NCBI GenBank assembly: GCA_964578745.1
Contig: CAZODZ010000002.1
Span: 17,123-81,122 of the forward strand
Reading direction: 5' to 3'
From: an uncultured Dehalococcoidales bacterium
Lineage (GTDB): Bacteria; Chloroflexota; Dehalococcoidia; GIF9; AB-539-J10
Length of the DNA stretch: 64,000 nt
A model generated the notes under the pieces. It searched no databases. It had not been told where the DNA came from and saw only the letters and a list, made by a program, of their open reading frames with translations. The translations under genes were made by a program, and so were the position numbers. Within the stretch, counting starts at the first letter, position 1. Each line of letters opens with the position of its first letter. This document shows positions 27,285 to 56,082 of the stretch, piece after piece.

Positions 27285-27336
27285 CGTACGTAGACCTTCT
27301 ACGTACGTTGACAATCGTGAAGGAGGGAATTAGAAT
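27285..27336 (+). promoter_or_regulatory. candidate operator palindrome plus a consensus-like promoter for the tubulin-like gene
   Basis: A 10-bp-arm inverted repeat (cgtacgtaga-cct-tctacgtacg, 27285..27307) abuts TTGACA (27308..27313). A 17-nt spacer leads to TAGAAT (27331..27336). The ATG lies 7 nt downstream, which predicts a leaderless mRNA. Confidence 0.5.
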
Positions 27337-27342
27337 AGCCCC

Positions 27343-28515
27343 ATGAAGCTGCTCGTGATAGGACTTGGACAATGCGGCGGCCGTATCGCCGACCGTTTTG
27401 CACGTTTGAACAAGAGGGGCCATGCCCTCCGTGGCATGGACACGCTGGCCGGCGTGTTCGCGGTCAATACGGATATCACCGACCTCAGTGGTCTTCGGAC
27501 CATCAAGCCTGACTATAAGCACCGCATTCTTATCGGTGCTCAGCGTACCAATGGCCACGGTGTGGGCAAGATCAGCGAACTTGGAGCGGAGATTGCCAAC
27601 GAAGACGTAGATAAGATCATCGACGCCATCCGGACGGCTGAGGGTTTTTACGAGACCGACGCATTTCTGCTATGCGCGGGTGCCGCAGGCGGCACAGGCT
27701 CGGGGTCGATAGGGGTTCTTACTAAACACCTGAAGGAACGTTATATTGGCAAGCCTGTCTATAACGTCATCGTCCTGCCATTCCGACAGGAAGAGACGAC
27801 TGAAACAAGGACTATCTACAACACGGCAACCTGTCTGAAGTCGACGTATCTGGTGGCGGATGCCGTATTCCTCATCGATAACCAGCGCTATGTGAAGAAG
27901 GATGCGGCTGCGGAGACTAACCTCAACACTATCAATGCCCGGGTTGTGGAGCCGTTTTATAATCTCCTTTGTGCGGGGGAAGAGACTAACAGGAGGTACG
28001 TCGGCTCCAAGACGCTCGACGCTGGCGACATAATCCAGACACTGGCCGGGTGGACCGTTATCGGCGGCGGTATGTCACGACTCCAGAGGCGCCTGCCGTT
28101 CTGCGGGCCCAAACGAGACTTCCGCGAGAAGATGTCAGACACAAGCCGTGCTGTCCATGCCATGGATCAGGCCATCAGTGAGTTGTCTATGACAATCGAC
28201 CCCACAGACGCGGGCAGAGCGATGTATCTCTTGACCGCACCGTCACGGGAAATGAGCATGGATGTCATCAAACAGTTGGGTGATAACCTCAGGAACCTTG
28301 CACCCAATGCCTTGATTCGCAGTGGGGACTATCCCCGGGAGACTAGGCAGGTGGACGTTACGGTGGTCCTGTCCGAAATCGGTAGCGTCCGCAAGGTCAC
28401 GGACTACTTCACCAAGGCCATCGATCTCATATCGGTCATGAAGGCCAAGAAAGGGCTGGGTTATCAGACCCGGCGACTGGAAGAGGCGTTCGACGAGATT
28501 CCGGTGTTGCTATAG
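27343..28515 (+). CDS. tubulin/FtsZ-superfamily GTPase, CetZ-like paralog (not the canonical FtsZ)
   Basis: It has a GLGQCGGRIADRF Gly-rich N-terminus, the T4 motif GGTGSGS, NGHGVG, ELGAEIANEDVD and a T7-like DAGD loop. The overall pattern resembles archaeal CetZ more than FtsZ. The canonical ftsZ is at 52325..53458. Confidence 0.75.
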   Translation: MKLLVIGLGQCGGRIADRFARLNKRGHALRGMDTLAGVFAVNTDITDLSGLRTIKPDYKHRILIGAQRTNGHGVGKISELGAEIANEDVDKIIDAIRTAEGFYETDAFLLCAGAAGGTGSGSIGVLTKHLKERYIGKPVYNVIVLPFRQEETTETRTIYNTATCLKSTYLVADAVFLIDNQRYVKKDAAAETNLNTINARVVEPFYNLLCAGEETNRRYVGSKTLDAGDIIQTLAGWTVIGGGMSRLQRRLPFCGPKRDFREKMSDTSRAVHAMDQAISELSMTIDPTDAGRAMYLLTAPSREMSMDVIKQLGDNLRNLAPNALIRSGDYPRETRQVDVTVVLSEIGSVRKVTDYFTKAIDLISVMKAKKGLGYQTRRLEEAFDEIPVLL

Positions 28516-28538
28516 TAGCAGGGGAAATTGTCTATGAG

Positions 28539-28580
28539 CTACAGTCCCTGTCAGTTCTGACAGGGACTGTAGCATTTTTC
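28539..28580 (+). terminator. Rho-independent terminator (possibly bidirectional)
   Basis: A perfect 15-bp inverted repeat (ctacagtccctgtca / tgacagggactgtag) with a 3-nt loop is followed by cattttt. It lies between convergent genes. Confidence 0.7.
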
Positions 28581-28601: not shown

Positions 28602-29135
28602 CTAGTGACGAGCCTTTGTAAATATGGCCCAGGTAGTGGCAATTGCTTCCGCGTGCTGTTTCCGGGCGGTTCTCTCGGCCTCGTCCCGTTCCTTCAGCGC
28701 CTGTGCGACGGCGTCATCATAGCTCTTCTTCGATTCGGCCGCTGCCGCCTCATACGACTGCCTTGCCTGGGCGATTGCTTCGTCAAATGCCTGTCGTGCC
28801 TTGTAGAGGCTCTCTTCCATCGCCTTTCTTGCGTGAGCAAGGCTCGAATCATAGGACTTGCGCGCCTGGGCTATGATGTCCTGGCAATTCTTGCGTGCCT
28901 GCTCGACCGCGCTGCTGTAGTCCTTCTCAGCCTTCTGTTCCTGTTCCTTGTAGGCGCGCTCAAGTTCACGCTCGGCTTCAACGTATGCCAAATATGCTGC
29001 CGCGGCGCGCTGCTGCGTCTCGTCCAGAAGTCCTAGGGTCGGCTGCTGTGATGTTGTGGTCTGTTTCTCTGCTTCTTCAGCTGGAGTCTCGTTCTCCTGT
29101 TGCTGCTTCACTGCCGCTCCTTCTGAGGTGGTCAT
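28602..29135 (-). CDS. hendecad-repeat coiled-coil protein (177 aa)
   Basis: It has about six tandem 11-residue repeats (AQARKSYDSSL / AHARKAMEESL / YKARQAFDEAI ...). An AAGGAGGG RBS precedes the ATG at 29135. Confidence 0.6.
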   Translation of the reverse strand: MTTSEGAAVKQQQENETPAEEAEKQTTTSQQPTLGLLDETQQRAAAAYLAYVEAERELERAYKEQEQKAEKDYSSAVEQARKNCQDIIAQARKSYDSSLAHARKAMEESLYKARQAFDEAIAQARQSYEAAAAESKKSYDDAVAQALKERDEAERTARKQHAEAIATTWAIFTKARH

Positions 29136-29224: not shown

Positions 29225-30787
29225 CTACTCCTCTTCCTCGTCTCTATCGAACGGGCGTTCTCGTTCGCTCGCGTACATCCTGGACAAGAACTGGAGACGG
29301 GCATTGATATCCCGGGCTGGTTCCCGGGGTTGCATTCGCGGCGGAGCAGGTTCTTCCGGTTCGAATCGGCTCATCGCCTCGTCCAACTCCCTTGCTGGCT
29401 GACGTCTCTCAGCGACGTCATATCCGGCTTTCTCGGCGCTGGCGACGGCATCCTCGAACACACGCATGGATGCACGGGCCGCCTTACGGGCCGCCCTGGC
29501 CGTTTCTTCGGACTTCTTGATGGCTTCCTGCAGCATTCGTGAGGATGCGACTACAGCCTCCTTTGCAGATGCCACCGAATCAGCAAGTGCCTCACGTATG
29601 ATGCGTTTGGATTCTTCTGTGGCCTCGCGTGCCTCGGCGCTCGTCTGCTCAGATTGGCGTATAGCTTCAGCTGCCAGACGCTTGGCCTCTTCAGCTGCCT
29701 CTGACGTCACCCGTGATATCTCCTCGGCCCGTGCCGCTGAACGTTGTGCCACTGCAAGGGCTTCCTCTGCAATTCTGGTGGACGAGGTGCTGACTTCCTC
29801 ACTCCTTCTCACGGCTTCGCGCGCCGCGCGTTCTGCTTCCTCTGCCTTACCGATTGCTTCCTGTGAGGCTCGCCCTGCAGACTCGACAGCTTCACGGCTT
29901 GCGCGGACTGATGCTTCAATACGGGCGACTGCTTCTTGGGAGGCGCGTATCTGGCGCTCGGCTTCACGCTGGCTCAGCTTACCCGCCTCTTCGGCACGGC
30001 GTAGAGCTGCCTCGAAAGCATGCTGGGATTGCTCAGCGGATGCGTTGGCATTTGCGATAGCCTCCTCGGCCCGTGCCCGTGCTTCCTCAAATGCCGCGGT
30101 AGAGAGCGCGGCGGAGTCACTTGCTGCTTGGAACACGCGCTCCGCCCGTGATACTGCCTTCTGCGAGGCCTTCTCAGCATCCTTCGCGACCTTCTCCGAA
30201 TTGCGTGCCACTCGCTCGGCCGCAGCCTGGGCCTCACGAGAGACTCTCACCGATTCCTCGGCTGCTCGTGCCGCGCGCGCTCCGTATTCCTCCGCTTGGG
30301 CGGTCGCCTGTTGTGCTGCACGGCGTGCCTCGTCCACTTTCTGTTGTGCCGTCTGGGCTGTCTTCTCGACCCGCGAAAGTGATTTCTGGGACGAGGAGAC
30401 CGTCTCTTCCATCGTAGCGATTGCCTGGTTCACCAGTTGCTCCAGGCGCGCAATTGCCTGCTGGAACGAACGGGCTTGTTGCTCAGCTGTTTCAGTTGAC
30501 GCCTTCAGAGCCCGCTCTGCCGCTGCAATGGCTTGCTCGGCACGTTCAATTGTGCCGCGGGAAACTCGCGAAGAGTCATCCGCAACCTCGGTTGCCCTGC
30601 GCACTGCGTCCTCCGCCAGTTTCCGTGCCTCATCTGCGGATTCCCGGGCCTCGCGAGCTATCGATTCGATCCTGCTCATGGCTTGTCCTGATGCCCGGCG
30701 CGACTGCTCCGCGGCTTGCTTGGCTGCCAGGCTCATTTGCTCCGCTCGAGCTACTGCTTCCTCAAAAGAAGGCGAATCGTTATCCAT
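29225..30787 (-). CDS. large hendecad-repeat coiled-coil protein (about 520 aa)
   Basis: Tens of 11-residue A/E/R/S-rich repeats (RASQEAVARIE / ASVRASREAVE ...) are followed by an acidic tail. An AGGAAA RBS precedes the ATG at 30787. The listed N-extension to 31003 overlaps the upstream nitrilase gene. Confidence 0.6.
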   Translation of the reverse strand: MDNDSPSFEEAVARAEQMSLAAKQAAEQSRRASGQAMSRIESIAREARESADEARKLAEDAVRRATEVADDSSRVSRGTIERAEQAIAAAERALKASTETAEQQARSFQQAIARLEQLVNQAIATMEETVSSSQKSLSRVEKTAQTAQQKVDEARRAAQQATAQAEEYGARAARAAEESVRVSREAQAAAERVARNSEKVAKDAEKASQKAVSRAERVFQAASDSAALSTAAFEEARARAEEAIANANASAEQSQHAFEAALRRAEEAGKLSQREAERQIRASQEAVARIEASVRASREAVESAGRASQEAIGKAEEAERAAREAVRRSEEVSTSSTRIAEEALAVAQRSAARAEEISRVTSEAAEEAKRLAAEAIRQSEQTSAEAREATEESKRIIREALADSVASAKEAVVASSRMLQEAIKKSEETARAARKAARASMRVFEDAVASAEKAGYDVAERRQPARELDEAMSRFEPEEPAPPRMQPREPARDINARLQFLSRMYASERERPFDRDEEEE

Positions 30788-30875
30788 GCATGTATTTCCT
30801 GGATGCGAAGTGTAAAGCACACTACCCCTGCGCCTCGGCAGGGTCGCTCTATTGTAGTCGCCGATCTCGTCTATT

Positions 30876-31700
30876 TCAACGAATGGGCGGGAGCTTTCGA
30901 TTATGCAGGACAGGCAGTTGTTCCCTTGCCTGAGCCAGCAGGCTGAAATCCAGGTTCGCAAGCACCACGGCGTTCTCTTCGCCGGAGGCACGTGCGAGTA
31001 CACGCCCCCATGGGTCTACCAGCATGCTGTTCCCGTATGTTGGGATACCGCCTGCACCAATACCCGATTGCCCAGGCGCGACGACAAAACTCAAGTTCTC
31101 AATGGCGCGTGCGCGTACGAGGACCTCCCAGTGCGCGGCACCGGTAAGCTCCGTGAAAGAAGAGGGCACGAATATCAGATCGACTCCCGAGGCCGACATC
31201 TCGCGGTAGAGCTCGGGAAAACGGAGGTCATAGCAGATGCTGAGCCCCATCCTGATGCCTGCTGCGTATGCCAGTACAACTTCAGAGCCCGCTGAGTACT
31301 TCATAGATTCGCTGATCGAGCGATCGTCAATCGTGATGTCGAAGAGGTGTATCTTGCGGTATGCGGCAATGATATCGCCGTCGGTGCCGATGAGAACGGA
31401 CGTATTGTATGGCCTCCCCCCTGGATTGCGCTCATGAACGCTTCCCGCGAGTATCCATGCGTTTCTCTCGTAGGCCAGTCTCTGAAGAGGAGAAAGGGCT
31501 GAACCCGGGAGTGGTTCAGCAATAGCGTCAAGCTCTATGTCGTCGCCGCGGTAGTCAAACGTCTCTGGCAGAGCGACGAGTTGGGCGCCTTCATCAAGGG
31601 CGCGCTCAACCAGTCGTGCTGCCCTGCGGATATTGTCCGACTTGTCCGGTCCGCTGGCCATTTGCACGATTGCAGTCCTCAATCGGTTCGGTTCAGTCAT
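30876..31700 (-). CDS. carbon-nitrogen hydrolase (nitrilase/omega-amidase superfamily)
   Basis: It has the catalytic triad context: E in LVALPE, K in YRKIHLF and C in GLSICYD. Confidence 0.8.
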   Translation of the reverse strand: MTEPNRLRTAIVQMASGPDKSDNIRRAARLVERALDEGAQLVALPETFDYRGDDIELDAIAEPLPGSALSPLQRLAYERNAWILAGSVHERNPGGRPYNTSVLIGTDGDIIAAYRKIHLFDITIDDRSISESMKYSAGSEVVLAYAAGIRMGLSICYDLRFPELYREMSASGVDLIFVPSSFTELTGAAHWEVLVRARAIENLSFVVAPGQSGIGAGGIPTYGNSMLVDPWGRVLARASGEENAVVLANLDFSLLAQAREQLPVLHNRKLPPIR

Positions 31701-31817: not shown

Positions 31818-31856
31818 GGAAAATGAAGAGCGGCGACAAGCTGCGTGTCGCCGCTC
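31818..31856 (-). terminator. Rho-independent terminator of the TRAP transporter operon
   Basis: A 10-bp GC-rich stem (gagcggcgac / gtcgccgctc) is followed on the minus strand by ttcattttcc. It lies 20 nt after the dctM stop. Confidence 0.6.
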
Positions 31857-36065: not shown

Positions 36066-37396
36066 GATTTCACCCCGTATGAACGCAGGTCGGCGGCCAG
36101 CTTATTGGACACGACGATACGAAGGAACGTGCGAGTCACGACGATGGCTGTGAACATGCTCATGGCGACGCCGATGAAGAGCGTGAGGGCGAAACCACGC
36201 ACCATGAATGCGCCAAAGGTGCCTCCAAGCCAGAATAGTATGAGACATGCGATGAAGGTGGTAATGTTGCTGTCTCGGATAGCCGACCACGCACGCTGGA
36301 ACCCGATCTCTACAGCAGGCGGAAGCGCTCTTCCGGCACGTAACTCGTCCTTCATCCGCTCAAATATGAGTACGTTTGCGTCGACAGCCATTCCAAGCGA
36401 TAGTATGAATGCTGCTATGCCTGGCAGCGTGAGCGTCAGTTGGGCCGAGAAGACATCGAATATCGCGAGCAGGAGAAGGCCGTAGATGCCAAGACTGAGG
36501 CATGCTATCAGGCCTGGAATACGGTAGTACACAATCATGAAGACGACCAACAGGAGGACGCCCACGCCGGCTGCTATCAGGCTCTTCCGTATTGAGTCGG
36601 CCCCGAGCGTCGCGTCCACATCCCGTTCATCAATAAGCTCCAGAGGTACATCAAGTGCGCCGGAATTGAGCTTGTTGACTAGGTCGCGGGCTTCCTCGAC
36701 TGTGAACTGTCCCTCGATCTGCCCCCGGTTCGAAATGACCGCGTTGACAATGGGAGCCGAGATTACCTGGTCATCGACTGTTATGGCAAGTGGCTTCTGT
36801 AGATTGCGCTGCGTGATTTGCTCGAACAGGTGTGCACCCTCACTGTTCCATTCGAACACTACGATCGGTGCCCCGTACTGGTCGAAGTCCTGCGAGGCGC
36901 TCTTCAGGTACTGGCCTGTGAGTTCCCGTTCCTGCCCGTCAGTGCCTTCAGCTGCGGCGGGCTCTTCCTTGAAGACGTAATTGCCCTCATCGTCGAGTAC
37001 GGGGTTCCCTGCTTCATCAACCTTCACCTCTCTGAAATAGAGCAGGCCTGTGTCTCCAATGAGACGGATGGCACGCGTGATATCCTTCACACCTGGAAGC
37101 TGGACAAGAATCCGGTCTGTACCCTGTTTTTGAATGGTTGGCTGGGCAGCGCCAAATTCGTCAACCCTACGCTGTATCTTCTCGATTGCGGATGCCATTG
37201 CCTGCTCATCCGTCACAGATGGATCCTTCTTTGTCAGATCCGCGCGGTAGAGGAGCTGGCTTCCACCACGAAGGTCCAGTCCCAACCGCAGGCCATCCTC
37301 GCCAAGCAGGTTCGATTGCACGGGGAGGATCGCCCACAGCGACAGGCCACATAGAATGATGATGAATCCAAGGAGAGCAACTTCTCTTCTCTTCAC
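36062..37396 (-). CDS. secD: protein translocase subunit SecD
   Basis: The 444-aa product has the SecD periplasmic domain and a C-terminal TM bundle. The gene order secD-secF is conserved. Confidence 0.9.
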   Translation of the reverse strand: MKRREVALLGFIIILCGLSLWAILPVQSNLLGEDGLRLGLDLRGGSQLLYRADLTKKDPSVTDEQAMASAIEKIQRRVDEFGAAQPTIQKQGTDRILVQLPGVKDITRAIRLIGDTGLLYFREVKVDEAGNPVLDDEGNYVFKEEPAAAEGTDGQERELTGQYLKSASQDFDQYGAPIVVFEWNSEGAHLFEQITQRNLQKPLAITVDDQVISAPIVNAVISNRGQIEGQFTVEEARDLVNKLNSGALDVPLELIDERDVDATLGADSIRKSLIAAGVGVLLLVVFMIVYYRIPGLIACLSLGIYGLLLLAIFDVFSAQLTLTLPGIAAFILSLGMAVDANVLIFERMKDELRAGRALPPAVEIGFQRAWSAIRDSNITTFIACLILFWLGGTFGAFMVRGFALTLFIGVAMSMFTAIVVTRTFLRIVVSNKLAADLRSYGVKS

Positions 37397-38946
37397 TTCG
37401 CGGTCCTCACAGTCTTGACTTCCCTGTTATAGGTTTTCCTCGCAAGAGTGAGAGCCTCCTCACGCGAGTTTATTTCACCCGAGGCCTGTGCCTCAAGGAC
37501 TCTAGCTAGAATGCGGCCGACGGTGGGGCTGGGCCCAATGTTGAGCAGCATCATGATATCGTTGCCAGTAATCAGTCTGGGCGGATGCACGGCCTCTTTC
37601 TGGCGGGCATGTTCGTCAATAACGTACCGCGCCAGTTTGCACACATTGCTCCACTCGGTCATCGTGTACAGAGGGCCGCGGCAGGCAAGATAGTCCGCAA
37701 GCGCCAGATAGAGCACGCCAAAACCGGCGTCCTTTGTATCTCGGAAGAACCTGTAGACTGCCCGTGTGGAAGGGAGTCCTTCACCGGACATCTGAGCCGG
37801 CCGCAGGTGATTGTAGACGAGCGTCTGGACAAAGGTACATTCCTGTTGGCTGAAGCGCAGCCGGCGAAGAATCTCTCTGCTGACGTGTGCGCCTTCTTTA
37901 GTGTGACCGAGGAAGCGTGCACGCCCGCTCTCGGTGAGCGTCTTTGTCTGTGGTTTGGCGACGTCGTGGAGAAGGCACGCAAGCTTGATGAGAGTTGCGC
38001 GTGTAGCCCCTGGAGAGACCTGCTCTCGCAGATAGGCCCGAAAGTGTGGCTGCGCCGGCAGGCAATCGCGCATCTCGTCGTTTCCGTATGCCCATTCCCC
38101 CTCGGCCGCGATGAACTCAAAAGTTGCCACAGTCTGCACTGAGTGCTCAAGCACATCCCAGAAATGCGAAGCAGGTTGCTCGACACCGCGGCACGCCTCC
38201 ATTTCGGGCAGCAGCTTCCCCAGAAGATCCAGCCGGTCCATGTGTCTCAGACTCTCAGCGGCGCCGTTCATGGCAAGTATCTTCAGCACTTCCTCACGTA
38301 GGCGCTCTCCGGCCACCGCCGCTATGCCGTCCGCTGACATTCGAACAAGGTCTTCAGTGTGGCCGTCGATCGTGAAGCCGAGTTCGGTCGCCAGCCGCAC
38401 GGCCCTGAGCAGACGGCCATGGTCGTCTTTGAATACTCCTTCGGTCACAGCTCTCAGCAGTCTTGACTGCAGGTCGTCGAGTCCACCGAACGGGTCGATC
38501 ACTTCCTGCAGAAGTACATCATGGCCGCCTTCCGGTGCTTCTAGGAGGTCTGCTATTCTGCTCGCGCGTATTGCCAGGGCGTTAACGGTGAAGTCCCGAC
38601 GCGACAGGTCTTCGGTGATATCACCCTCAAATCCTACGAAGTCAATTGTTCTGATGGGGACCGCCGACCCATTCGGAGCCCTTTCGCTGCTTGCAGGGAC
38701 AATGACGCGTGCGATTCTGCGCTCCTCTTTCAGGGCTACGTACGAGCCGTCCGTCACGGATGCAACTTCCTTTGCGGTGCGCAGTGCGTCGCCTTGGATA
38801 GCGATGTCGATATCCGGCGATGCCCTCCCTATCAGGCTGTCACGCAGGAACCCCCCGACCACATAGCCCGGGTGCCCCGGTGTGTCGGAAAGCCTGAGGA
38901 CAGGAGTAAGCTGGGCAGAGGAGCAGGTGCAAGATGATAGGGGCAT
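37393..38946 (-). CDS. cca: CCA-adding tRNA nucleotidyltransferase with an HD domain
   Basis: It has a Pol-beta-like head (GGFLRD, DIDIAI), a poly(A)-polymerase-like body and HD motifs (LLHDVAKP). Confidence 0.8.
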   Translation of the reverse strand: MPLSSCTCSSAQLTPVLRLSDTPGHPGYVVGGFLRDSLIGRASPDIDIAIQGDALRTAKEVASVTDGSYVALKEERRIARVIVPASSERAPNGSAVPIRTIDFVGFEGDITEDLSRRDFTVNALAIRASRIADLLEAPEGGHDVLLQEVIDPFGGLDDLQSRLLRAVTEGVFKDDHGRLLRAVRLATELGFTIDGHTEDLVRMSADGIAAVAGERLREEVLKILAMNGAAESLRHMDRLDLLGKLLPEMEACRGVEQPASHFWDVLEHSVQTVATFEFIAAEGEWAYGNDEMRDCLPAQPHFRAYLREQVSPGATRATLIKLACLLHDVAKPQTKTLTESGRARFLGHTKEGAHVSREILRRLRFSQQECTFVQTLVYNHLRPAQMSGEGLPSTRAVYRFFRDTKDAGFGVLYLALADYLACRGPLYTMTEWSNVCKLARYVIDEHARQKEAVHPPRLITGNDIMMLLNIGPSPTVGRILARVLEAQASGEINSREEALTLARKTYNREVKTVRTAK

Positions 38947-38994
38947 GGATGTCGATTATAGCCTCAGGCGGCGGCTATTGTAAAGCAGAAACAG

Positions 38995-52175: not shown

Positions 52176-52324
52176 TGGGCATGCCTCACAATTTGTTGTG
52201 CCACAAACAAAGTGTACCACCACATGTTGGGGGCTCCAAGATAAGAGGAGCTCTGCAGTGGTGTCTTGAAAAGCCAACGGGGAGGACGGAGAACCCGTCC
52301 TCCCCGTGCGGGCGGGACAGGCAA

Positions 52325-53458
52325 CTATTGCCAGGAAAGCTTGGAGGGCTCAGGCGTAACGTCCGCTCGACCCTTCAATGCCTGCGTGAGCTGACCACCT
52401 GCACCGTGTCGCTGGCCACGGCGGAGGAACGATGGGACATCAAGTGTGTCGCCGCCACCCTTCATCAGTCTGCGCAGTTCTTCAGTATCGGGAGATCCCT
52501 TGCCATATTGACTTGTGAATCCGGTTGCTATGACGGTGATCTTGATCTCGGCATCCATCTTCGGATCGAACACGACGCCGAAGATGATGTTCGCCCGTGG
52601 ATCAACGGCCTCGCTGATGACACTTGCCGCCTCGTTACATTCGAACAACGTCAGGCTTGGGCCGCCCGTGATGTTGAAAAGCACGCCCTGGGCGCCTGCG
52701 ACCTGTGCATCAAGCAGCGGGCTTGCGAGTGCTGCCTTGGCCGCCTCTGCAGCGCGATTCTGGCCGCTGCCGCGCCCCACGGACATCCATGCAGGGCCGG
52801 CATCTTTCATGACCGACTTGATATCGGCGAAGTCAAGATTGATGAGACCGGGCACTGTTACCACCTCAGAAATGGCCTGCACACCGAGCAGCAGGGCGTC
52901 GTCTGCGAGCCTGAAGGCGGAATCGATTGTTGTCTTGGCATCACACAACTGAAGCAGCCGATCGTTTGGGATGATGATGAGCGTATCCACCTTCTCGGTC
53001 AGGTTGAGAATGCCTTCCTCAGCCACTTCCGATCTGTGGCCTCCCTCAAACTTGAACGGCTTGGTTACCACGCCGATAGTGAGCGCACCGGACTCCTTTG
53101 CCGTCTCTGCAACCACCGGGATGCCACCAGTGCCTGTTCCTCCACCCATGCCAGCTGCCACAAATACCATGTCAGCACCCTCGACGATTTCCTGTATTAG
53201 CTGCTTGCTCTCCTCGGCAGCCTTGTGTCCAACGCGGTGATCTCCGCCTGCTCCGAGACCGCGTGTCAGTTTCTCGCCGAGCTGGATCCGTGTGGGTGCC
53301 TCGGCAAGAGCGAGGGCTTGGGCGTCCGTATTCATGGCGATGAATTCTACGCCGCGGATGCCCTCGCGGATCATGCGGTTGATTGCATTTGTTCCACCGC
53401 CACCGATGCCGATAGCCTTGATCTTGGCAGGGGCGGGTGTGTATGTTGTCTTAGCCAT
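52325..53458 (-). CDS. ftsZ: cell division protein FtsZ
   Basis: It has [17 protein letters not shown] and the GGGTGTG T4 loop, with full FtsZ conservation. An AGGAGGA RBS precedes the start. Confidence 0.95.
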
Positions 53459-53497
53459 CTGTTCCTCCTAGTCTTCTCAACGTTTCAGCGCACAACA

Positions 53498-54718
53498 CTA
53501 TCCGCGGAAGAGCTTGCGCAGCAGTCGGGTGATGCTACCGAACATTCCGGCACGTTTGTCCTGCCATGCGGATGGTTCGCGGTTGCGGGCCTGCCAGAGG
53601 ATGAGCCCGAGTGTCGTTGCGTATGCGGAATCGCGTAGAATGTCGGTGATACCGTAGACCCCGCTGCCAAGCGGAGCGCCCTTGCGCACGGGCATTTTCA
53701 GTTGCTCCCTGCCCAAGTCCACGAGGCCTCCGAGGTTCGCGGTACCACCTGTGAGTACGAGTCCACAGGGGGCGAGACGCTGGTAGTCAGTTGTTGGAAG
53801 CTCGAGAAGGATGAGTTCGAACAGCTCCTCCATCCTGGAGCGCACGATGTCACATAGTTCACGGTACGACGCGGCATGCCCGTTCTCGATGCCTGTCAGT
53901 TCGGTCTCCCTGCCGAACTCCTTGTTCGGTGTCGCATCACCGTATGTCTTTTTCATGCGCTCTGCGACATGGAACGGGAGGCCGAGCCCGATGGCGATAT
54001 CGCTTGTTATCTGATAGCCGGCCACTGGGATGATCGCTGTGTGATAGATATCCCCGTCCTTGAATACGGCTATATCTGTTGTGCCGCCGCCGAGGTCTGC
54101 CATGATGATGCCGCTTTCGCGTTCCTGGGCGGTGAGCACAGCCTCGCCGCTTGCCAGAGGTTCAAGTACGAGGTCGTCAACCTGCACGCCGATACTCCGG
54201 ATGACTTTGACGAGATTCTGAACAGACGAGACCGATGCCGTGATGATGTGGGTCTCCACATCAAGTCGCGTGCCATGCATGCCAACGGGTTGCTTGACAC
54301 GCTCTTCCCCGTCGAGCGTGTAATAGCGTGGGATGGCGTGCAGCAGCTTCTTCCCCTCAGGTACAGCTACATTTCTGGATGCAGCGAGGACCCGCTGCAG
54401 GTCCTCCGAACGTACCAGCCGGTCATTCCTGGGAATGGCCACAACGCCTTTGTTGTTGATGCTGCTGATGTGCCGCCCAGTGACACCAACGAAGACCGAA
54501 TCGACCCGCGTGCCGCTGATCTTCTGTGCCTCCTGGATAGACGCGGCGATGGCCTCTTTAGCCTCGTCCATGTTGACGACGATACCCTTGTGTAGTCCAT
54601 GGCTGGGCACAACGCCAACGCCGAGAACCTCGATGTCATCCTGGTTTCTGACGTTCGCCACGATGGTCGCTATCTTGGTGGTACCCACATCAATGGCGGA
54701 GACAATTCCTTTGGCCAT
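53498..54718 (-). CDS. ftsA: cell division protein FtsA
   Basis: It has the actin-fold motifs (SAIDVGTTKIAT, DLGGGTTD). An AAGGAGGTG RBS precedes the ATG at 54718. Confidence 0.9.
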   Translation of the reverse strand: MAKGIVSAIDVGTTKIATIVANVRNQDDIEVLGVGVVPSHGLHKGIVVNMDEAKEAIAASIQEAQKISGTRVDSVFVGVTGRHISSINNKGVVAIPRNDRLVRSEDLQRVLAASRNVAVPEGKKLLHAIPRYYTLDGEERVKQPVGMHGTRLDVETHIITASVSSVQNLVKVIRSIGVQVDDLVLEPLASGEAVLTAQERESGIIMADLGGGTTDIAVFKDGDIYHTAIIPVAGYQITSDIAIGLGLPFHVAERMKKTYGDATPNKEFGRETELTGIENGHAASYRELCDIVRSRMEELFELILLELPTTDYQRLAPCGLVLTGGTANLGGLVDLGREQLKMPVRKGAPLGSGVYGITDILRDSAYATTLGLILWQARNREPSAWQDKRAGMFGSITRLLRKLFRG

Positions 54719-54763
54719 ATTCACCTCCTTAGATTGCTCAGGACGCTGAGCCACAGAACGGCT

Positions 54764-55660
54764 CTATGCAAGACGCTCAGCGACTCTGAGCCGCGCACTG
54801 CGGCTGCGTGGGTTGGAGCGGGTCTCCAACGAAGTAGGTCGTATGACCTTCCTTGAGACGAGCGAGAAGACGTGGCGTGCTGCCTCCCTGCGCATGAACT
54901 GCTTCACAATGCGGTCCTCGAGAGAGTGGTAGCTTATGACTACTACACGACCCCCCTCACGCAGGAGTTCTGCTGTCTGGTCCAATGCCAGCCTGAGGTT
55001 CTCCAGCTCCCTGTTCACCGCAATTCGAAGCGCCATGAATGTGCGGGTGGCAGGATGGATCCTGCCGCGTCTGCCGCCGTGGACCTGCTGCACAATGTGC
55101 ACAAGTCGTAATGTGGACAGGATCGGCCTGTTCTGGACGATCCTGTGCGCAATTTGGCGGGAGTAACGTTCTTCTCCGTACTCCCACAATATGCGAGCGA
55201 TTTCCTGCTCGCTGCAATTGTTGACAATGTCTGCTGCTGACGTGCCCTGCGCTGAATCGAAGCGCATGTCAAGGGGCGCTTCATGCTGAAAGCTGAAGCC
55301 CCGCTCGGCTGTGTTCAGCTGCATGGATGAGACGCCGAGATCCATCAGGATCCCAGCATTCCGGACAAATCCATGTGACTCGCAGATGCTCTTGAGCTCA
55401 GAGAAGTTGCCGCGGGCGAGTGTTACCCGAGGGCCGAATGATGACAGGTTCTCTCGTGCCAGTTCTATCGCAGAGGGGTCCGCATCAATGCCCAGGAGCT
55501 GGCCGTCAGGCCCACTTCTCTCCAGAATGGCACGTGCATGTCCTCCTGCCCCCACTGTACAATCCACGTATAACTCCCCCGGTTGCGGTTGCAACGCTTC
55601 CATGACCTCAGTCACCATCACGGGGATGTGTGCCATTGATGCGATGTCTCGGATGCTCAA
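54764..55660 (-). CDS. rsmH: 16S rRNA (cytosine1402-N4)-methyltransferase
   Basis: It has MraW signatures (HIPVMVTEV, YVDCTVGAGGH). Confidence 0.9.
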   Translation of the reverse strand: MSIRDIASMAHIPVMVTEVMEALQPQPGELYVDCTVGAGGHARAILERSGPDGQLLGIDADPSAIELARENLSSFGPRVTLARGNFSELKSICESHGFVRNAGILMDLGVSSMQLNTAERGFSFQHEAPLDMRFDSAQGTSAADIVNNCSEQEIARILWEYGEERYSRQIAHRIVQNRPILSTLRLVHIVQQVHGGRRGRIHPATRTFMALRIAVNRELENLRLALDQTAELLREGGRVVVISYHSLEDRIVKQFMRREAARHVFSLVSRKVIRPTSLETRSNPRSRSARLRVAERLA

Positions 55661-56082
55661 CTACCTCCCAGACTCTCAAGAATCTGTTCAGCCTGTTCTT
55701 CCGACGACTGCTTCTCCTGCTTCCAGAGTTCTTCGTTCCAGAGTTCAACGGACTGGTTGACGCCGACCACAACCACCGTTTCACCGATTTCGGCGTGCAG
55801 ACGCAATGGCATGGGCAGGCCTATGCGCCCCTGCTTGTCAAACGATGTGGAGAATGCGCTGCCAAATATGGCACGGTTTAGCTTGCGCTGGCTCGCGGAG
55901 GTCAGTGCCTTAGAAGACAGCTCGTCCGCGATGCGCTTCCACTCCGAGAGGGGGTAGACGCGGATGCATTTCTCAGTGCCTTTTGTGAGCACGATTGTGT
56001 CCCGCATATCACGGCGGAACTTGGGTGGTAGGGGCACTCGTCCCTTGTCATCCAGCTTGTATACGTACTCACCAAAAAACAT
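55657..56082 (-). CDS. mraZ: transcriptional regulator MraZ
   Basis: It has the duplicated MraZ domain (YVYKLDDKGRVPLP ...). It is the first gene of the division cluster. Confidence 0.9.
   Translation of the reverse strand: MFFGEYVYKLDDKGRVPLPPKFRRDMRDTIVLTKGTEKCIRVYPLSEWKRIADELSSKALTSASQRKLNRAIFGSAFSTSFDKQGRIGLPMPLRLHAEIGETVVVVGVNQSVELWNEELWKQEKQSSEEQAEQILESLGGS

Follow-up and report, generated by a model that had tools for sequence, protein, structure and literature searches.

A CetZ-like tubulin-superfamily GTPase and its conserved genomic partners in wall-less Dehalococcoidales

CetZ, a member of the tubulin superfamily, has been called archaea-specific in two published accounts (PMC11621097 and the review PMC9856176). 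In haloarchaeal CetZ1, mutations of the GTPase residues of the T7 loop, with E218A among the mutants analyzed, disturbed rod development and assembly; the protein ends LESLF, and this tail is functionally essential, because the AESGG mutation abolishes rods (bioRxiv 10.1101/2024.04.08.588506). Chloroflexota-Dehalococcoidia “CetZ-like” sequences were mentioned in passing by Santana-Molina et al. 2023 (PMC9871819), with matches to the CetZ_C hidden Markov model of about 1e-10, and were termed “sparse paraphyletic groups” without further analysis. Here, we describe a gene for a CetZ-like GTPase in a 64,000-nucleotide stretch of DNA from an uncultured Dehalococcoidales bacterium (contig CAZODZ010000002.1, positions 17,123 to 81,122). 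This whole stretch is called the window below, and all positions are given in its coordinates (Table 1).

On balance, the observations outlined below are consistent with a reading that we consider probable, in which a CetZ-like branch of the tubulin superfamily has been vertically conserved, and multiplied into paralogs, in the peptidoglycan-less Dehalococcoidales, where it would serve as a cytoskeleton for cell shape and/or division. The evidence comes from the domains, loops and predicted fold of the protein, from its distribution and phylogeny, and from the arrangement of its gene among neighbors across related genomes.

A CetZ-like GTPase in a bacterial host

Its domains, sequence matches, modeled fold and nucleotide-binding loops place the 390-residue protein in the tubulin superfamily, close to CetZ, and indicate, as far as sequence and structure prediction can tell, that it is competent as a GTPase. 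The open reading frame (ORF) begins with MKLLVIGLGQCGGRIADRF, and no in-frame start codon lies further upstream. Along the protein stand GLGQCGGRIADRF (residues 7 to 19), NGHGVG (70 to 75), ELGAEIANEDVD (79 to 90), GGTGSGS (116 to 122) and LDAGD (225 to 229). All of the motifs quoted in a preliminary description of this DNA (T1, GGTGSGS, NGHGVG and DAGD) are found where it had placed them, and the GTPase residues, which it allowed might prove to be missing, are intact. In an alignment of 18 homologs, the T1 (GxGQCGG), T3 (GHGxG) and T4 (GGTGSG) loops are invariant, as are D226, G228 and D229 of the T7 loop.

The domain models separate the protein from FtsZ. In Pfam, CetZ_C is matched in 83 of 85 family members and FtsZ_C in none of the 85, and the window protein itself has no match to FtsZ_C (PF12327). 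Tubulin_2 (PF13809) likewise finds no match in the window protein; weak matches occur in 22 of the 85 family members. The NCBIfam equivalog model for FtsZ, TIGR00065, scores the protein at 60.8 bits, against a cutoff of 295.2, and does not admit it as an FtsZ. A tblastn search with the protein did not recover the window's own ftsZ at an E value below 10, and no second cetZ-like paralog was found within the 64-kb window.

Sequence and structure searches of the PDB agree with this placement. By sequence, the protein matches Haloferax volcanii CetZ1 (4b46) at an E value of 3e-40 over residues 1 to 360, CetZ2 (4b45) at 2.5e-24 and Methanosaeta thermophila CetZ (3zid) at 3.6e-15. Outside CetZ, the best FtsZ is found at 7e-12, gamma-tubulin at 8e-10, BtubB at 1.7e-7 and TubZ at about 5e-6, and the gamma-tubulin and BtubB matches span only part of the protein. 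An AlphaFold model built from an 85-sequence alignment of the wider family reached a predicted local distance difference test score (pLDDT) of 93.0 and a predicted TM score of 0.91; it superseded an earlier model from 18 close homologs that, with a pLDDT of 49.7, was unusable. In a Foldseek search of the PDB, CetZ1 ranks first (E value 1e-32, target TM score 0.91, root mean square deviation 2.3 A), followed by CetZ2 and Methanosaeta CetZ, and FtsZ structures appear from rank 4 onward (E value about 1e-24). The proposal that the window encodes, besides FtsZ, another GTPase of the tubulin/FtsZ superfamily and that this one resembles CetZ is thus upheld both by the domain and sequence matches and by the structural comparison with CetZ1, CetZ2 and FtsZ for which the preliminary description had called.

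How widely is such a protein distributed? When each GTDB species was represented by a single genome, a scan detected relatives in at least 528 of these genomes, labeled, with few exceptions, Dehalococcoidia or Dehalococcoidales; the best 80 of these relatives, at 58 to 95% identity, provided the loci compared in this work (numbered from L001). An exhaustive HMMER search over 1.84 billion cluster representatives returned 970 clusters at E values of ≤1e-3, of which 68 were at ≤1e-30, with identity falling from 53% to about 28%, and the named close homologs all derive from metagenome-assembled genomes (MAGs) of Dehalococcoidia, Dehalococcoidales or Chloroflexota. The window is also no archaeal DNA, since FtsA, MraZ and RsmH are encoded beside FtsZ. 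The remark that CetZ-like proteins are not expected in bacteria is therefore overstated. The existence of such proteins is not new, given their mention in PMC9871819, and the sequences mentioned there are almost certainly the same proteins as the Dehalococcoidia family considered here. What appear to be undescribed so far are the breadth of the family, its coherence as a clade and its genomic context: unlike the earlier set, the one assembled here spans at least 528 species genomes and one supported clade, with paralogs, partner genes, a tail motif and a promoter architecture.

The clade comes from a neighbor-joining tree that was calculated with 100 bootstraps for 80 full-length sequences, with the window's FtsZ as the root and with tubulin, TubZ and FtsZl sequences outside its sampling. 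The Dehalococcoidia-type sequences, divergent paralogs included, form one clade of 34 with a bootstrap value of 97, and the remainder of the tree holds Haloferax CetZ1 and CetZ2. By sequence, we would class the family as a side branch of CetZ, or a sister to it, in bacteria.

Two MAG contigs that carry a cetZ-like gene are labeled Deltaproteobacteria, namely L073 (PLLV01000041.1, “Syntrophaceae”) and L076 (JAUVYB010000005.1, “Deltaproteobacteria”). The gene order of L076 (enolase, gap, cetZ, dnaX, ybaB and recR) is typical of Dehalococcoidia, and the labels probably reflect mis-binning or mislabeling and not a second phylum.

Set beside the archaeal CetZ proteins of known structure (CetZ1, CetZ2 and the Methanosaeta protein), the window protein shares the architecture of a Tubulin GTPase domain plus CetZ_C, a T1 loop of the GQxGG type, a T3 loop (GHGVG) identical to that of CetZ1, the T4 GGTGSG, an acidic catalytic residue in T7 and a short tail with a conserved hydrophobic end, and both kinds of host are of the S-layer type and lack murein. 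It differs in its bacterial host, in its separate clade, with 28 to 34% identity, in a T7 catalytic Asp as in FtsZ where CetZ1 has Glu, in a tail of the FtsZ-peptide-like form D-I-P-x-L-L in place of the acidic ...L-E-S-L-F, and in neighboring genes of the C1 and C2 type (see below), which are not among the cetZ-associated genes in the accessible text of the review PMC9856176. With bacterial FtsZ, it has in common the superfamily fold, the T7 aspartates, a D-[IV]-P-x-[FL]-L tail and coexistence with FtsA, but it is without FtsZ_C, has GQCGG where the FtsZ T1 loop has GGGGxN, is encoded outside the mraZ-ftsZ cluster and carries its tail on a very short linker of ~12 residues. Eukaryotic tubulin with its microtubule-associated proteins (MAPs), and BtubA/B, can be likened to it in the GQCG motif of T1, in the GGTGSG signature and in the idea of dedicated helical filament-associated proteins, yet here the similarity is much weaker, and there is neither an alpha/beta-type heterodimer pair nor a kinesin-light-chain-like bklc gene.

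Could the protein belong to one of the other branches of the superfamily? The preliminary description left TubZ and the FtsZ-like 1/2 families as undecided alternatives, and the domain, PDB and PHROG matches now allow both to be set aside. A DNA-segregation tubulin of the TubZ/PhuZ type, carried on a plasmid, prophage or mobile element, would be in keeping with the TubZ structures among the weak PDB matches and with a weak PHROG match (E value 1.3e-4), but the neighbors across the 80 loci are chromosomal housekeeping genes (nnr, tgt, gap, dnaX and ribosomal protein genes), CetZ_C is present, the GC content is in line with that of the flanks, and no TubR-like gene, centromere repeats or PADLOC matches were found. 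Of all the identities considered, this one is the least probable, to the point of being scarcely credible. A membrane-remodeling GTPase of the FtsZ-like 1/2 type, as defined by Makarova and Koonin, is also very improbable: a noncanonical bacterial paralog with unusual neighbors, and with weak Tubulin_2 matches in part of its family, might suggest it, but the window protein lacks a Tubulin_2 match and has a complete tubulin-type C-terminal domain that is classed as CetZ_C. Moreover, its neighbors encode helical-repeat proteins and not the partners that FtsZl1 operons are said to contain. Both alternatives, together with a defense system and a mobile-element origin, were rejected on context, domain content and composition. 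Nor is there any sign that the gene was acquired horizontally in recent times or lies in a mobile element: the GC content matches that of the flanking DNA, and the synteny is stable.

Table 1. Positions of the features discussed, in window coordinates
Feature	Position	Strand	Details
Perfect inverted repeat CGTACGTAGA-cct-TCTACGTACG	27285..27307		Arms 27285-27294 and 27298-27307, 3-nt loop; abuts the -35 box
Sigma-70-type promoter TTGACA-17-TAGAAT	27308..27336	+	-35 box 27308-27313, -10 box 27331-27336; 11/12 consensus matches
cetZ-like gene (tubulin-superfamily GTPase)	27343..28515	+	ATG start; 390 aa plus stop codon
Tubulin/FtsZ GTPase domain	27349..27891	+	aa 3-183; PF00091, E value 4.8e-32 (Pfam)
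T1 loop GLGQCGG		+	aa 7-13
T3 loop GHGVG		+	aa 71-75
T4 loop (tubulin signature) GGTGSGS	27688..27708	+	aa 116-122
CetZ_C C-terminal domain	27916..28422	+	aa 192-360; PF21011, 53.4 bits (gathering threshold 21.6)
T7 (synergy) loop LDAGD	28015..28029	+	D229 aligned to catalytic E218, and D226 to D215, of Haloferax CetZ1
C-terminal peptide D-E-I-P-V-L-L-COOH	28492..28512	+	Family motif [DE]-I-P-[SVT]-L-L at the very end
Intrinsic-terminator-like hairpin and T-run	28538..28580	+	Hairpin 28538-28573, 16- to 17-bp stem, then ATTTTT; between convergent genes
C2, small helical protein	28602..29135	-	177 aa; convergent to the cetZ-like gene; no Pfam family
C1, large helical-repeat protein	29225..30790	-	521 aa from MDNDSP (ORF up to 31003); conserved partner
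Candidate promoter TTGAAA-17-TACAAT	30851..30879	-	~60 nt upstream of the C1 start codon; 10/12 consensus match only
Reduced division cluster mraZ-rsmH-ftsA-ftsZ	52325..56082	-	Context
Canonical ftsZ	52325..53458	-	Directly downstream of ftsA; Tubulin and FtsZ_C domains, above the TIGR00065 cutoff

Signals before and after the gene

The cetZ-like gene has a promoter of its own, and comparison with relatives strongly supports a predicted transcription start at 27343, the A of the ATG, and thus a leaderless mRNA. Six nucleotides lie between the -10 box and the ATG, the A being the seventh nucleotide downstream of the box; with the spacing put in these terms, the near-consensus promoter of the preliminary description stands. 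Promoter matches of at least 10/12 number six in the whole window, and those of 11/12 number two. A comparison of the 90 nt that precede each of the 80 homologs revealed a strong phylogenetic footprint in the window's clade: in all 40 loci at ≥67% identity (L001 to L040), TTGACN-17/18-TA(G/C/A)AAT ends 6 to 9 nt before the start codon, while from one subclade to another neither the spacer nor anything 5' of the -35 box is still recognizable. At the more distant loci, the same promoter lies 25 to 50 nt upstream in 29 of 40, and a GAGGTG-type Shine-Dalgarno sequence is present in 27 of those 29. Both marks of a leaderless gene that can be read from the window itself are there, with a -10 box placed for a start at the codon and no Shine-Dalgarno sequence at a functional distance. 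The proposal of a leaderless start therefore has strong comparative support.

Could the gene nonetheless be read from a leader? An AGGAGG at 27321-27326 lies within the promoter spacer, 16 nt from the ATG. The closest clade has kept it, and it might be part of a transcript that reads through from nnr and has a leader, which counts against a leaderless start; a 16-nt distance from AGGAGG to ATG is in turn poor for a Shine-Dalgarno sequence and counts against the read-through. Given this distance and its restriction to the closest clade, the AGGAGG is unlikely to be a Shine-Dalgarno sequence; there is no alternative start codon in range, and the other leaderless clades do not have the element.

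Although the spacer of a promoter can ordinarily change freely, the one at 27314-27330, cgtgaaggagggaat, hardly differs among the 14 closest genomes; it holds the perfect AGGAGG without a usable start codon.

The window's other 11/12 promoter match, TTTACA-18-TATAAT at 38984..38955 on the minus strand, also ends 8 nt before a start codon (38946, of the ORF 37393..38946). Given this second case, leaderless genes may be common, perhaps general, in this organism.

The palindrome next to the -35 box raises a separate question. It occurs once in the window, against zero expected, and only five places in the window hold a perfect inverted repeat whose arms reach 10 bp or more and whose loop is no longer than 10 nt. 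The preliminary description was correct on its 10-bp arms and on its position, and had read it as a repressor operator, a reading that would place the gene under tight control as an accessory element. A perfect inverted repeat (10+10) that abuts the promoter and is unique in the window would suit such a role, as would the short ACGT-centered palindrome (cACGTACG or cACGTGCG, with a CGTACG or CACGTG core) that stands directly 5' of the -35 box in the 14 closest genomes, and only there, while the sequence further upstream has wholly diverged. However, the left, distal arm is absent from every relative compared (L001 to L013 and L040), and the motif is missing in L014 to L040, where the promoter is kept. 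Only the closest clade keeps the proximal part, ACGTACGT (27301-27308); the full palindrome is specific to this species, and the conserved core is ACGTACG/CACGTGCG beside the -35 box. The element is centered near -47 and its core near -38.5, positions that would equally fit an activator site or slower divergence beside the promoter. No regulator gene is adjacent, and the 136 nt upstream of the gene match no Rfam family and have no significant RNA fold (z = -1.1). An operator thus seems doubtful to us. The palindrome may be a transcription factor site that has been duplicated in inverted form in this species. A role as the terminator of nnr was considered and is ruled out by the lack of a U-tract on either strand; the palindrome is also not conserved.

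Downstream, the hairpin terminator noted in the preliminary description is present, and its structure is retained in close relatives: a GC-rich hairpin and T-run, of unrelated sequence, follow the gene in L001 to L013 and in L040, and also follow the B paralogs described below. No such hairpin was evident in L014 to L039 in the comparison of loci. Two further perfect inverted repeats of ≥10 bp, at 52278-52310, just 3' of ftsZ, and at 31828-31855, in the gap between a nitrilase-family gene and dctM, are presumably terminators.

Tail, partner genes and host

In the AlphaFold model, the last helix of the fold (residues 350 to 369) is followed by a low-confidence linker and then by the end ...EEAFDEIPVLL. 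The terminal motif [DE]-I-P-[SVT]-L-L is present in 96 of the 98 cetZ-like ORFs of the 80 loci, the two exceptions being one G-I-P-V-L-L variant and one sequence broken by Ns. F383, I386, P387 and L389 are invariant in the 18 homologs, and the most divergent members of the clade have similar (D/E)(I/L)PxL endings. Bacterial FtsZ carries a C-terminal peptide with the consensus D-I/V-P-x-F-L, the handle for FtsA, ZipA and SepF. The tail of the window's own FtsZ is LDVPSFL, and at the end of the window's FtsA stands GMFGSITRLLRKLFRG, a typical amphipathic helix for membrane targeting. The tail of the cetZ-like protein appears to have been fitted to an adaptor of the bacterial kind. As its core reproduces that of the FtsZ C-terminal peptide, we posit that it would act as a docking handle and that FtsA or another FtsZ-tail binder is its most likely receptor, with the products of C1 and C2 as the alternative.

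C1 and C2 are the conserved partners of the cetZ-like gene. In the neighborhoods of the 80 loci, examined together with a de novo clustering of all ORFs, C1 was found in 64 and C2 in 54; their place directly downstream of the cetZ-like gene and their orientation, convergent to it, are constant. The other neighbors (nnr, tgt, the nitrilase-family gene and a TRAP transporter) are common only to the 14 to 16 closest genomes. The “coiled-coil neighbors” of the preliminary description are thus conserved in relatives and can be specified as these two minus-strand genes, for which the TTGAAA-17-TACAAT listed in Table 1 is a candidate operon promoter.

Both products are helical, and neither C1 nor C2 has an evident transmembrane segment. 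C1 varies across loci from 500 to 780 residues, and the window's C1 consists of ~24% Ala, 16% Glu, 13% Arg and 10% Ser. It has a repeat of ~25 residues, with self-similarity peaks at offsets of 25, 50, 75, 100 and 125, and its alignment reveals two conserved motifs, FExAVARAE at the N-terminal and RLxFLSRMY at the C-terminal end, besides an acidic tail. C2, of 130 to 200 residues across loci, has an acidic N terminus that varies and a core (LDETxQRAxxAYxAY) that is conserved; its helical repeats differ in number, and WxI(F/Y)xK is conserved at its C terminus. Only 33 homologs of C2 are detectable, all of them hypothetical proteins. Searches of Pfam, the PDB, PHROG and PADLOC assigned neither protein to a family, and the only matches were composition-driven ones to designed helical repeats.

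Loci of the Dehalococcoidaceae type have the order gap, cetZ-A, C2 and C1 on the opposite strand, cetZ-B, dnaX, ybaB and recR. Many loci hold two or three cetZ-like paralogs, and some have tandem copies; a third, divergent paralog ends E-L-P-T-L-D. In L048 to L069, the paralogs flank the genes for the helical proteins (e.g., L054:1734-2909 and L054:5956-7179; also L076:4764-5936).

The division genes of the window identify its host as a bacterium of the wall-less Dehalococcoidales type. The canonical ftsZ had been correctly located beforehand and can now be assigned to the minus strand, next to ftsA. Its cluster has nothing between rsmH and ftsA and is without mur, ftsW, ftsI and ftsQ genes. 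Adjacency of rsmH and ftsA, together with loss of the wall genes of the division and cell wall (dcw) cluster, is a signature of Dehalococcoides mccartyi, Dehalococcoidales and SAR202 (PMC10608941), and the same reduced arrangement has been reported for wall-less Dehalococcoidales, SAR202 and Mollicutes.

A proposed cytoskeleton for cells without peptidoglycan

We propose that the cetZ-like gene would be transcribed from its own strong sigma-70-type promoter, starting at the A of the ATG, into a leaderless mRNA that would end at the hairpin at 28538-28573. The protein would bind GTP via its T1 to T6 loops and polymerize head to tail, with D229 completing the active site of the next subunit, as in CetZ1 and FtsZ. 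The resulting filaments would lie at the envelope of a wall-less cell of the S-layer type and would control its shape and/or assist its division. In this model, the helical-repeat proteins C1 and C2 would work with the filaments, perhaps by scaffolding or bundling them as MAPs do, and the D-I-P-x-L-L tail would dock the filaments on FtsA or another FtsZ-tail binder, or alternatively on C1 or C2.

A published hint at phenotype comes from D. mccartyi BTF08. There, the disc-shaped cells of pure culture are rich in two proteins, the “FtsZ/tubulin GTPase” btf_0551 and btf_0548, a hypothetical protein encoded nearby, which are reduced or undetected in the barrel-like cells of co-culture (PMC8163811). 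We infer that these two are orthologs of the window genes, and the spacing of their genes fits the cetZ-A/C2/C1/cetZ-B module. When a named D. mccartyi ortholog was sought with the L049 paralog, all 120 listed matches were uncultured relatives at ≥80% identity, so btf_0551 is put forward as a putative ortholog.

Several points weigh against a cytoskeleton of the kind favored here. Polymerization, localization and phenotype are all inferred from homology. The Dehalococcoidia clade lies outside canonical CetZ, and the deeper nodes of the neighbor-joining tree have bootstrap values below 30, so a carry-over of the shape function of CetZ1 is uncertain. In the alignment with CetZ1, the long amphipathic M-loop of that protein is absent here. 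Docking on FtsA is argued from a similarity of six residues, and the tail could instead bind SepF, C1, C2 or an adjacent subunit, the last having been proposed for CetZ1. Finally, 16 of the 80 loci have no C1 nearby, gap-cetZ-dnaX loci being an example, and partnership with C1 is accordingly not obligatory for every paralog.

Might the protein be, rather than a shape determinant, a division-specific second “FtsZ” resembling archaeal FtsZ2, one that joins the Z-ring through an FtsA-binding tail and aids the constriction of cells in which no peptidoglycan synthesis at the septum drives invagination? The near match between its tail and the FtsZ C-terminal peptide would speak for such a role, as would a host that lacks the division genes for wall synthesis. 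Archaea without pseudomurein need two FtsZ proteins (PMC9856176), and in D. mccartyi, FtsZ and the tubulin-like protein fall together as morphology changes (PMC8163811). In many loci, furthermore, the B paralog lies beside dnaX-ybaB-recR. Yet by sequence, domains and fold the protein is CetZ-like and not FtsZ-like. Its gene lies 24 kb from the mraZ-ftsZ cluster in the window, and in none of the 80 loci is it found within that cluster or adjoining ftsA or ftsZ; in addition, CetZ proteins are reportedly dispensable for division in Haloferax. This second-FtsZ role overlaps the cytoskeletal model that we favor, and as an account in its own right we consider it rather unlikely.

To generalize the favored reading further, the locus might encode a composite cytoskeleton in which a CetZ-like tubulin, present as two or three paralogs, is held on FtsA by a tail remodeled into the FtsZ type and is served by MAP-like C1 and C2, and which provides disc shape and division without peptidoglycan. 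We offer this fuller model only tentatively. If it were true, CetZ would be a cross-domain solution for shaping cells that have nothing but an S-layer, and bacteria would offer an example of a tubulin with dedicated filament-associated proteins.

An order that includes environmentally and biotechnologically important organohalide-respiring bacteria carries a conserved and probably expressed CetZ-like system, while the literature describes CetZ as archaea-specific (PMC11621097 and PMC9856176). For the evolution of the tubulin superfamily, the choice raised by this family is between inter-domain transfer and ancient retention, and for gene expression in Chloroflexota, the conserved leaderless promoter provides a clean comparative example. 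Dehalococcoidales have lost peptidoglycan and have an archaeal-style S-layer; how do such cells, which have neither wall nor elongasome, keep the form of a disc and divide? It is this question that the locus addresses, and for it the locus supplies candidates: tubulin-like paralogs, one to three in number, a pair of new partner proteins built of helical repeats, and a defined docking peptide.

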